In this document: positions 1,870 through 18,824 of the stretch, in pieces
Numbering within the stretch: position 1 is the first letter of the stretch
Layout of the letters: each line of letters begins with the position of its first letter
From: Anolis carolinensis
Taxonomy: Eukaryota
Reading direction: 5' to 3'
NCBI RefSeq assembly: GCF_035594765.1
Contig: NC_085843.1
Coordinates: 119,885,971-119,949,970 of the forward strand
DNA: 64,000 nt
The notes under the pieces: model-generated
What the model saw: only the letters and a program-made list of their open reading frames with translations
Database searches by the model: none
What the model was told of the DNA's origin: nothing
Program-made: the position numbers and the translations under genes

Positions 1870-1881
1870 CATTATTATTAT

Positions 1882-1913
<32 letters not shown>

Positions 1914-1995
1914 TTCAGGGGAAGGCAGTCGAGATATTAGGAAAAAACATTATTATTATTACTATTATTATCATGGTAGTTATGTTATTAAGAAA

Positions 1996-2035
<40 letters not shown>

Positions 2036-2130
2036 CAGGGGATAGTAGTCGAGGTACTAAGAAATATCACCATCAACATTATTATTACTATTCAGGGGAT
2101 GATAGTCGAGATATTAAGAAGCTTCACTGA

Positions 2131-2176
<46 letters not shown>

Positions 2177-2706
2177 CAGGCAATAGTAGTCGATATATTA
2201 GGAAAAGCATTTTATTATTATTATTCGGGGTGGTAGTTGAGTTTTAAAGAAACATCACTGATATTATTCAGGGGATAGCAGCTAAGATATTGAGAAACAT
2301 TATTACTATTCAGAGAATAGCAGTCGAAATATTAAGAAATATCAGTATCATTATTATTATTAATTATTAAGCAGGGTATAGTAGTCGAGATGTTAAGAAA
2401 CATCACTATTATTAAACATCATTAATAATAATTACCAATTATTATTATTATTATTATTGAGGAAACATAGAAAGACACATCACTGCTACTACTATTGTTA
2501 TTAATAATAATCAATAGTGGGTGGTAGTCGAGATATTAAGAAAAACTGATATTATTATTCAGGGGATAGCAGTCGAGACTAAGGGGAGAGCAGTCGAGAT
2601 ATTAAGAAATGTCAATAATAATAATAATAATAATAATAAATCAGGGTATGGTAGTCGAGATATTAAGACACATCACTATTATTAAACATTATTATTGTTA
2701 ATTACC

Positions 2707-2749
<43 letters not shown>

Positions 2750-3200
2750 GGAATAGCAGTCGAGGTATTAAGAAACACCACTGCTAATATTATTGTTAAG
2801 GAGTCCCGGTGGCGAAGTGCGTTAAAGCTCTGAGCTGCTGAACTTGCAGATCGAAAGGTCCCAGGTTCAAATCCCGGGAGCGGCTTGAGCGCCCGCTGTT
2901 AGCTCCAGCTCCTGCCAACCTAGCAGTTCGAAAACATGCCAATGTGAGTAGATCAATAGGTACCGCTTCGGCGGGAAGGTAACGGCGCTCCATGCAGTCA
3001 TGCCGGCCACATGACCTTGGAGGTGTCTACGGACAACGCCGGCTCTTCGGCTTAGAAATGGAGATGAGCACCAACCCCCAGAATCAGACATGACTAGACT
3101 TAGTCGAGATATTAAAGACATCACTGCTTTATTATTATTATTAGTGATCAATAGTGGATGGCAGTCATTAAGAAATATCAGTATTATTATTACTAATCAT
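1870..3200. repeat. Compound minisatellite: ~40-bp core (cagggatagtagtcgagatattaagaaacatcact) separated by variable (ATT)n/(AAT)n tracts
   Basis: More than a dozen degenerate cores visible; interrupted by a SINE at 2800-3102. Confidence 0.9.
2800..3102 (+). mobile_element. Sauria SINE, 3' tail missing
   Basis: tRNA-like head with A/B boxes (ggtggcgaagtgcg...ggttcaaatccc); body matches the copies at 21788 and 31101. Confidence 0.9.
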
Positions 3201-15250: not shown

Positions 15251-17951
15251 TGTTAGTTTAATGGAAAAATAAATCATTTGGTTGTTCATCAAGAGTGGAA
15301 ATACTGCTTTAGTCAACAGAGGGAAATCTATGGATGAAAGCAATGGCTAAATATGTTTTAAAAAGGACATTTGGTGAGGTCTAATATCATCCAACTCCTT
15401 TTATTCTTGGAATAAGCTCTTGCTCAGAGTCTAATTCTAGTCTCCACACCCAGCGCTGATGATAGCTTGAAAGAAAGCATCTTAAAAACAACAGAAAAGA
15501 AATGTAATGTATCTGTACTCCACATTCTTATTACAAGCATTATAACAAAGTTAGGCTTAAAGGTAACTCAAATGAAAAGTTCTGAAGCCTAGAAAATCCA
15601 TGAATGGTTTGGCCTTAAACAGTACCTTTGAACCTTACAGTTCAATGGAACAGTAATTTTATAGCTTAGGTGAAGCAATTCACATTACAATGTTAATGAT
15701 ATTTCTGCATCTTCTCTTTGGCAGATTTCAAAGAGAATGAGCCCTGTTATAGAACCTAGACAGAAAAGGCTGGCTTGGACTAATAGGCAAAATTTTTAGA
15801 AGATTTAGGACATATCTGCTGTTGTTAGTCAATCCCCAGCCAACATACATTAGAGAGAGAGAGAGAGAAAAAAAACATTGCTGAGGATGTGGCTGATCCA
15901 AATATTTGCTTTTGAGAGATGCAGTAAGCTGCAATTTCACATAAAAGAGTCACTGCCTATTTTAAGAATGGATGAGTTAACTGCAAAGCGATGGATGTTA
16001 CTCTTAGATATTTTCCTGTATTGCTTTGGACTGTCTCAATAGGAAATCCATACCCCTTGAAAGGTTGTCTCAAATTCAATTTCAAATATGTTTCCCTCAC
16101 ATCAAAATAGATTCATTTAGTTTCCCAATTTTCCAGCAAAATAAATGCAACCGTCTTGTAAAAAAATTATAAAATAGTAATGTCTTCCCAAGCAGAAACA
16201 AAGATCTAAACTTATTTAGAATGTAATTTGAAAAATTGAAAAAGAACAAACACAGGAATTGGCAATGAACAGTGTAATCTGAAACATATGTAATCAGCTA
16301 TAAAAGCTGTCATGGTTGTAATCGGAATCACACCAATTAAAGTTTGTAACCCTCTTGAATACATATTGAAGGTAAGTGGGAAGGATTTGGATAGAGTGAT
16401 GTGGCCCAACATTCACATCTCCATCTACTGAAGTTAAAGATATTTTCACATCCCTGGACAGAGGAAGTATAAGGCAATTTCTAGAGGCAATAATATTTCC
16501 AACTCTACCTACCTTTTGCTTGAGTATTGCTCTGGAATTTCACACAATATACTTACTATACAAATTCTTTGTTCCTTTTATCCATTGTTAAGCTAAGCCA
16601 CACACAGACATTTACTTTGGAAATTATTCCTTTGAGTCCCCTTTTCTTGTGCTATAGGTCTTTTTAGTTACTTTCCTTTCCACTGCTCTGAATAGTGTGG
16701 GTTTAGTTACATTTGTCTGACAATAAAGGCCAGATTGTAACCTTGCTCACTTGTCCATAGGAAGGGGCAGTGCCTAACTGTTCTGCATGAAACACAAAGA
16801 AGGGACTCTGCTACAAATGAGAGTAATGAGCAGGCCTTCCTTCCCTTTCCCACCTTCCTTCTGTAGGCAATGCCATACTGAACCCTGGCAAAGCTTAGTT
16901 CACTGCAGGATGCAAGCCTGTATTGTGCCTAACGCTAGCTCTGATCCCACACAGTAACGTCAAGGGAGTTATTCTTCCATTTGTTTCTGCCTCTACTAGT
17001 TGCGGGCAATGAGATGAATGCCAACAAGGCTGGGGGGAATGATTCAAAGTCCTCCCCTCTGTGCAAAATAAAGCAACCAGGGCTCAGGATGACAGGGATA
17101 GTTGTGCCGAATAAAGGGCTTTCAGCAAATGCAGATTTTTCCAGTCCAGCATCACAAGCTGCCCAATAATTATAAGGATCCCAAAGTCAAATAGGACCAA
17201 CCAAATTGTGTCAAAAGTATGTCCATTTTTGCACTTTTGAGACAATTCCACAAAAGAGGCTGGTGGCTCTGGGGTCAGTGGCATGTAGCATTCACTCCAG
17301 AATTTAGTGTAAATGTCAGAAAATGCTGAATATACACTTTTTTTTAGATACAGGGTTCAGTAGTTTGTATGTCTTCTTTCAAGTCTGGACCAAAACCTAG
17401 TATGGATTCACTACCTTACTGACATCGAAGTCACCAGGCTCTTCTGAATTTTGATTAGTCCAAAAAAAGGTATAACTTGCCTCTGATTTTTTTCTCTCTC
17501 ATGGATGACACACTTCAATGTTAGTGGAAATGATACAAGACCCTTGGCTATTTCTTCATCTTTGGGGCACACGAGATATGGTTCATTATGTTATGCAATA
17601 TTTGAGATCAAGATCATATTCAATTTCCAAAAAATCTAGAATTCTTCAGACTGTAGCTGAGGGCCTGATATTAAATTTTGCGAGACACATACCTAATTTT
17701 GAGTTTTAAAAAGGATAATAACAAGACCTTAATGAATTGTTGGAGTTGTTTTGTCTATCATGTTTTTCATCATGTATTAGAGTCTCATAGATGAATATAT
17801 GTATGTGTAGAATTAGTTTTTTGATATTACCTAGTTTGCTGCCTTGAAACTCCAGATATGTGGCAAAAGTATCTTTAATTAATTTGTAATTTCTTTACAG
17901 TAAGAATAATATGGGAGTGGAATGAACTACCTAGGTATTTTGGAGGGGCTT

Positions 17952-18493
17952 TGTTAGTGATTCCTCTTCTTCAGAAGAGGAAGGGGAGCAGGAAAGTGTT
18001 CATGAGTCAGAGAGGGAGTTGGAATCTGAGGAGGAGATTTTGCAAATACCCACATTTCAGGAAAGGCGAAAGGAAACAGAGCAGAGATGTCGTTCAGCTA
18101 GAATAGCTGCCTGAAATGCAGCTGAGTAATTGGGAACCGCCCTAGCAGCTGTGGGGGAATTCAGGGCTATAAATCAGAAGCAGGTGCAGTCAGCTTTTGC
18201 TGGTAACAAACTGACTCTAATGCCTAAGCCTTTGCTCCCTTTGTGCCTGCTTTGAGTCTGCATCTGGGAAACTGCTCCTAATGATTTATTGCTGTTTCTT
18301 TGTCAGAAGTAAGACTGCTACTTGATTTGGGAATTTATCAGAAACTTAAGAACTGTGTTTGCCCTAAGACTTCCTTGCTTTCTTTTGCATCATACCACTG
18401 AGTGTGCTGTTCTTTATGTTTTACTGAAGTAAAGCAGTTTTCATTTACTCACCACACTGTTTTAAGGCTGTTCTTGAAAGACAAAACAGGACA
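17952..18493 (+). mobile_element. Solo LTR (542 bp), probably Gypsy-like
   Basis: TGTT...GACA ends; perfect 5-bp TSD ggctt (17947-17951, 18494-18498); TATAAA at ~18168; AGTAAA poly(A)-like signal at ~18428. Confidence 0.85.
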
Positions 18494-18824
18494 GGCTTTT
18501 CCTTAGTGGCAATATTCAATCAGAAACTGGACATCCATGTGCTGGCCATATTTTTGCTCTGGATCTCATGCACAGAGGTAGTGGTAGTACTACATAGCCC
18601 ACAAGATCCTTTCCAACTTGATAATATTCCAAAAGAAAATATTTCTTCCACCCTTGACATTGGGGAAGAGTAACTGCAATATCTGGGCTCCAGAAAAGAG
18701 TAGGAAGAGGTACTAGGACATAGGCCTGAATCCAACTACAATAGATCTATCAGCTCAACAGAACTTGCATTCGTTGTTGATTTACTACATTAGCACATTA
18801 GATTTGGCCCTGGGGTTGCATTAG

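Follow-up and report, generated by a model that had tools for sequence, protein, structure and literature searches.

In Anolis carolinensis, an integrase tail encoded by the LTR of a chromovirus and ending in a motif of the HMGN/Dot5 type is real and under selection, and it is apparently undescribed. The tail is likely an anchor for the nucleosome acidic patch that works with the chromodomain and holds the integration complex on nucleosomes, a reading to which our analysis gives a probability of about 0.65. The case starts from a solo LTR of a Gypsy element with a chromodomain, whose pol frame runs on into the 3' LTR and whose motif is conserved as protein. The original prediction, made from this LTR, was of an integrase tail carrying a nucleosome-tethering arginine anchor; this interpretation is partly supported.

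The window, that is, the whole 64,000-nt stretch of DNA analysed, contains one 542-bp copy of the LTR (Table 1). Its TG..CA ends, a single target duplication (GGCTT on both sides of 17952-18493) and the lack of internal sequence identify it as a solo LTR, as had been claimed, and the translation given for 17953-18114 from LTR base 2 was reproduced exactly. Loose ends of public sequencing runs accumulate at 17952 and 18493-18495; contigs from these runs over the LTR inform on repeat depth and boundaries only. The frame 5' of the LTR is closed by several stops, so there is no integrase there to extend, and the word R-R-S-x-R-hydrophobic is not intact, with Cys at position 1. The window copy is a dead, ordinary solo LTR, a relic unable to make integrase protein. 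At its left edge (17945-17957), the flank/LTR junction has a stretch of pyrimidines and then AG, and could be a splice acceptor. Elsewhere in the window, four head-to-tail units of ~143 bp with ATT microsatellite tails (43124-43835) are probably a tandemly amplified short repeat, and in a degenerate array (1877-3200) ATT/AAT microsatellites stand between units that have a core in common.

Table 1. Features of the solo LTR, in window coordinates
Feature	Position	Strand	Remarks
Solo LTR, 542 bp, family C of a Tf1/Sushi-type Gypsy chromovirus	17952..18493	+	TG..CA ends, TGTTAG..AGGACA
Left target-site duplication GGCTT	17947..17951	+	5 bp, the family length
Right target-site duplication GGCTT	18494..18498	+	repeat of left GGCTT
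Acidic linker, codons 1-45 of the LTR-encoded integrase tail	17953..18087	+	translation; in frame with the chromodomain where internal sequence is kept
HMGN/Dot5-like motif, codons 46-54	18088..18114	+	decayed here: Cys at first position, stop at ninth
TAA ending the pol frame in family C	18127..18129	+	stop position in 52/54 other copies
TATAAA, likely U3 promoter box	18168..18173	+	spacing similar to the self-priming target in family B
Likely self-priming site, start of R, 11 nt	18199..18209	+	complementary to the leader directly behind the 5' LTR of copy L281

A search of its own genome gave 2132 candidates for the family of this LTR (family C) at first look, the 39 best other copies being 93-94% identical to the window LTR. 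The last 18 LTR bases had 933 exact genome matches against 1 for the reversed control, and the family therefore has at least 933 copies; the median pairwise identity of 56 of them was 91%. When the window copy and its 29 best relatives were compared, the 5-bp duplication was exact in 17/30 and had at most one mismatch in 26/30, whereas a length of 4 bp fitted 1/30 and one of 6 bp 0/30 of the same loci. As the first 30 loci have no common flanks and mostly show 5-bp duplications, they are solo LTRs.

The reading frame of the LTR is more than chance, as it stops at codon 59 in 52 of the 54 other copies compared, five codons beyond the TGA of the window copy. The first codon of the motif (18088-18090), TGT in the window and supposed to be a deaminated CGT, reads CGT in 14, TGT in 24 and CAT in 12 of these copies, a spread that agrees with that origin and looks like CpG decay on two strands. 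The window TGA (18112-18114) had likewise been derived from CGA. The residue of the family at this position is indeed Arg, but the codon in the 54 other copies is AGA (49), AAA (3) or GGA (2) and never CGA, so that CpG deamination of CGA is ruled out and the window stop is a private change. The proposed ancestral word, RRRSARIAAR, is borne out by natural copies, which read RRRSARIAAR or RRRSARLAAR (RRRSARIAARNA.E in L008 and L049; RRRSARLAARNAAE in L157), and the motif is not missing from the family consensus. Because both CGT codons decay, RRSxR[IL] is intact in only 6 of the 56 family-C LTR copies. The linker of L157 consists of 38% D+E and has a net charge of -13.

Ten family-C copies retain internal sequence beside the 3' LTR; a pattern search turned up copies of this type, all preceded by a common purine tract, and a protein search gave more. 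In eight of the ten, the last pol codons continue over the polypurine tract (PPT) in frame with LTR base 2, the two exceptions being one copy with a one-base shift about seven codons upstream and another with a deletion across the tract. Two copies, L156 and L157, are open from the chromodomain through the motif to the family stop. The predicted entry of the integrase tail into the 3' LTR was thus recovered, and as a rule the upstream ORF neither stops before the LTR nor lies out of frame with it. A point missing from the prediction is that the chromodomain sits directly before the LTR-encoded tail.

SH3_Tf2-1 and Chromo scored in family-C frames in Pfam searches, PF00385 was above the cut-off in P0003 and P0004, and the sister element P0002 has the Pfam order PR-RT-RH-IN-SH3-Chromo. 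By tblastn, pol was collinear on the family-C copies L279-L281, of which L281 has both LTRs, a target duplication and sequence resembling gag and pol; a long open pol frame of family C was not seen among the 10 best matches (longest 300 codons). RT-RNase H lies before the integrase and the 3' LTR directly after the chromodomain, as in Ty3/Gypsy elements, and the chromodomain at the integrase C-terminus is that of a chromovirus. The closest solved relatives of this chromodomain are HP1/CBX, and its F, W and Y, which align with HP1 Y, W and F, are presumably the three aromatic cage residues. Three such residues define the type I chromodomain (PMC3059260, partial text), to which the chromodomain of the element would belong by its aromatics.

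In L281, 11 nt of the leader can pair with an LTR stretch that lies 31 nt after the start of the TATA box, and an equivalent 10-nt complement was found in one family-B copy. This appears to be the self-priming arrangement of the Tf1/Sushi group, where self-priming has been described and where the leader complementary to the LTR likewise takes the place of a tRNA site (PMC6317226, partial text). A search with a tRNA-type (TGG-type) PBS found no full-length copies or internal sequence. The LTR start TGTYAGG fits the Sushi motif TGTYANR (PMC3601003, partial text), and the order PR-RT-RH-IN-chromodomain is the same as in Sushi-ichi and the Tf1/Sushi V-clade of Ty3/Gypsy; the Tf1/Sushi assignment is made on domain order, LTR start and self-priming site. 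In contrast to Tf1/Sushi, pol of the element extends 58 to ~100 codons into U3, with a conserved Arg motif at its end.

Related families of the same genome carry the tail as well. Family B is younger, with open frames of >1200 codons, and its frame also continues into the LTR, where the tail ends in RRS[AL]RIAA[KR] after a linker about twice as long as that of family C. Outside the motif, the tails of C and B do not align. Families D and E each have such a word too, placed behind a linker of their own, and the motif has persisted in three related families between which the LTR DNA can no longer be aligned. The word R-R-S-x-R-hydrophobic is thus present in family C and its sisters, and the closest named protein matches of a sister family come from Anolis carolinensis. 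A back-translated motif pattern gave 17,464 genome matches and its reversed control 22; the matches represent copies and should not be counted as separate events, and the first 30 were all LTR-type tails. A tree of the SH3-chromodomain region, with 30 rows and without P0209 and P0069, which the pattern did not catch, grouped C, E, D and B (support 93/82, below the starred mark) and placed family A outside. As the four group together while their LTR DNA differs, the motif was probably passed down within a single lizard clade during turnover of the LTR DNA.

In family E (L217:1210-1950, L040, L269), an acidic frame starts at LTR base 2, spans ~100 codons and ends in R[RH]S[IL]RIA. L269 links this frame to a chromodomain before the PPT; the sole family-E junction seen is out of frame, within a decayed G run. 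On the minus strand of L113 (2252-8431), a young family-B element with LTRs 99.8% identical and a 1362-codon pol frame is nested in a decayed family-C copy. The Anolis 'cation-transporting ATPase' model P0008 ends in a family-B LTR tail that includes the motif, either an annotation artefact or an exonisation.

In family A, pol ends at the PPT and the motif was found in 0/17, yet long open frames are present; the tail is therefore not needed by every chromovirus. Pol of this family (L127, L133, L144-L154) stops in a G-rich tract just before the LTR, which makes it a natural tail-less control, and its tract-length variants read ~20 codons further. Many fish elements, like family A and unlike the tailed families, stop at or soon after the PPT.

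Outside this genome, the strict motif was found in 1/150 library representatives (P0044, about eight residues past the tract), many of the 150 being gene models that leave the element at the PPT. Among 90 proteins compared, the tails from outside Anolis end or start in looser words, such as RQSSRL in Salvator, RYSLR, RRSSRV, RRSLR and RPVSLRPKR. Other squamates have other Arg-rich words at the tail end, and PRGRP is present in many fish elements. In P0050, P0188, P0214, P0236 and others, which are fish chromoviruses, PRGRP comes directly after the chromodomain; we take these words to be AT-hook-like.

Selection was quantified in 32 family-B lineages of <97% identity. The pN/pS ratio was 0.12 for the chromodomain, 0.14 (0.03-0.31) for the nine motif codons, 0.47 (0.37-0.60) for the LTR linker, 1.10 for the four codons after the motif and 0.75 (0.56-1.02) for the non-coding LTR past the stop, where three 'phases' were identical and count as one control; pairwise values depend on one another, and only codons were resampled for the intervals. 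Off-frame ratios were 0.87-1.61 overall and 1.35-1.61 for the motif itself, and within the motif pS was 0.73 and pN 0.10. The frameshifted copies L143 and L171 were dropped from the final 0.14, which becomes 0.21 when they are included, and a value of 0.03 for five chosen motif codons was post hoc and set aside. The motif is therefore under protein-level purifying selection, with Arg kept as Arg in family B, whereas the linker is weakly constrained (0.47 vs 0.75). In family C, synonymous changes make up about half of the shared variants once the three decaying Arg codons are set aside, which gives only soft support.

In 68 copies chosen by their chromodomain and not by the motif, R1 was kept in 67, R2 in 67, S3 in 66 and R5 in 65; nine of the 68 have a stop elsewhere, and these entered the length and residue counts but not the pN/pS set. 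Lys never occurs at R1, R2 or R5, whereas position 9 is Lys in 40 and Arg in 28; Ser3 is never Thr, and position 4 alternates between A and L. From chromodomain to stop, 61/68 copies have a length divisible by 3, over at least eight length classes, while beyond the stop the lengths fall into all three phases.

The motif resembles known binders of the acidic patch. RRSARIA of the tail is identical in 7/8 residues to RRSARIAT of yeast Dot5, which needs R6, R7, R10 and the acidic patch (PMC13347269, partial text), and the tail has the same R-R-S-x-R-hydrophobic as HMGN RRSARLSA, tardigrade Dsup RRSSRLTS and Dot5. By cryo-EM, HMGN2 RRSAR and Dsup RRSSR sit on the acidic patch, HMGN2 R23 and R26 are the anchors, and phosphorylation of S24 is predicted to block binding (PMC12487698, partial text). 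The invariant positions of the element motif are the arginines used by these three proteins. From the match to Dot5 together with the invariance at those arginines, the tail is read as a likely acidic-patch anchor. HMGN, Dsup and Dot5 are, however, host proteins, and in the element the word is C-terminal, stands after an acidic linker and has A or L at position 4.

Some results limit this reading. Homology to the HMGN family over the whole nucleosome-binding domain was not found: P0001 matched 0 Pfam families, HMGN included, and the tail profile gave 0 PDB matches at E up to 10. A complex prediction of H2A and H2B (L193) with the 30-residue tail scored 0.00, the alignment not being used, and speaks neither for nor against an anchor; AlphaFold 3 models of HMGN2 on the nucleosome are low-confidence too (PMC12487698, partial text). 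The acidic linker beside the motif could repel the patch, which counts against an anchor, as does the reach of the selection data, which come from family B, CpG decay being dominant in family C. The tail-less family A, the single strict motif among the 150 representatives and the differing tail ends of other squamates also weigh against it.

The selection data show constraint on the protein motif and not its partner, and a real protein tail might also serve as a nuclear-import signal or as a docking site for a host enzyme or factor (a kinase, 14-3-3 or another). RRxS-like words are common kinase sites, and retrotransposon integrases frequently bear C-terminal import signals. We consider this unlikely, as classical importin-alpha signals need Lys, which never replaces R1, R2 or R5 while position 9 swaps K and R, Ser3 is never Thr, and the whole word RRSARIA matches a tested acidic-patch binder, Dot5. 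A basic helix that binds the target DNA, or the cDNA or RNA of the element itself, with the acidic linker as a DNA-mimic brake, seems less likely still. The PRGRP words of fish chromoviruses stand at a comparable place, the residues before the motif are also rich in Arg and Lys, and Dot5 mutants retain some DNA binding (PMC13347269, partial text). Basic residues that bind DNA, however, usually allow exchange of R and K, which here only position 9 does, and the Arg/Lys-rich residues upstream of the motif vary between lineages. That the frame is incidental, a purine-rich U3 giving Glu-rich text and the motif being a DNA element such as a factor site near the promoter, is nearly excluded, since, although the best match between C and B LTR DNA covers the motif and its stop (33 nt, 79%, E 0.001) and the linker is weakly constrained, the motif ratio is low in frame and >1 off frame, Ser uses two disjoint codon sets (TCA in family C, AGY in family B, with CGN and AGR for Arg) and indels preserve the frame before the stop and not after it.

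If the tail is an acidic-patch anchor, it may act as follows. The pol frame crosses the PPT into the 3' LTR, where U3 encodes the acidic linker and RRSxR[IL]AA[RK], and the tail would remain on the mature integrase. The chromodomain, with its three cage aromatics, may read a methylated H3 tail, while the arginines at motif positions 2 and 5 would insert into H2A-H2B pockets like HMGN2 R23 and R26. The acidic linker may serve as a flexible spacer and keep non-specific DNA binding low, and the invariant Ser is a possible phosphorylation switch, as proposed for HMGN2 S24. The predicted outcome is a two-point tethering to chromatin before strand transfer.

Parts of this arrangement have precedents. 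In group A of the plant CRM elements, the integrase frame also enters the 3' LTR, a CR motif stands in place of the chromodomain, and its partner is not identified in the available text (PMC3059260); the Anolis element, in contrast, keeps a type I chromodomain, to which the LTR adds a second module, and so lacks the replacement that marks group A. A frame in Sushi LTRs is not mentioned in the available part of PMC3601003. Viral arginine-anchor tethers are known from foamy virus Gag, KSHV LANA and CMV IE1 (PMC9040877, partial text), and there too a mobile element holds its genome on nucleosomes through the acidic patch by a short peptide, as is predicted for the element. The viral anchors sit on Gag or nuclear antigens and have other sequences, whereas that of the element would be on the integrase tail. 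Retrotransposons are mentioned 0 times in the available text of this review of acidic-patch tethers (PMC9040877). In the open literature, with subscription papers, Repbase, Dfam and supplements outside the scope, no description of a retrotransposon integrase with a nucleosome arginine anchor was found.

Taken further, the chances are about even that a lizard chromovirus clade uses U3 as the last coding stretch of its integrase, carrying there a true HMGN-type anchor beside a methyl-lysine-reading chromodomain, and that the tails elsewhere form an exchangeable kit. If so, no earlier retrotransposon integrase would be known to have an acidic-patch tether of its own, as the acidic-patch tethers of mobile DNA in the literature covered are viral Gag or nuclear antigens and not retrotransposon integrases, and the host genome would hold ~17,000 coding copies of the motif. 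The tails with RQSSRL in Salvator, with RYSLR and with PRGRP in fish would then be exchangeable chromatin-gripping peptides that steer integration. As the nine-residue motif is nearly identical to a tested binder, the question of an anchor is directly testable with peptides and mutant nucleosomes, and the large set of natural variants defines which positions of an HMGN-like motif can change. Part of the LTR is under codon-level selection, which matters for the dating and annotation of these LTRs.
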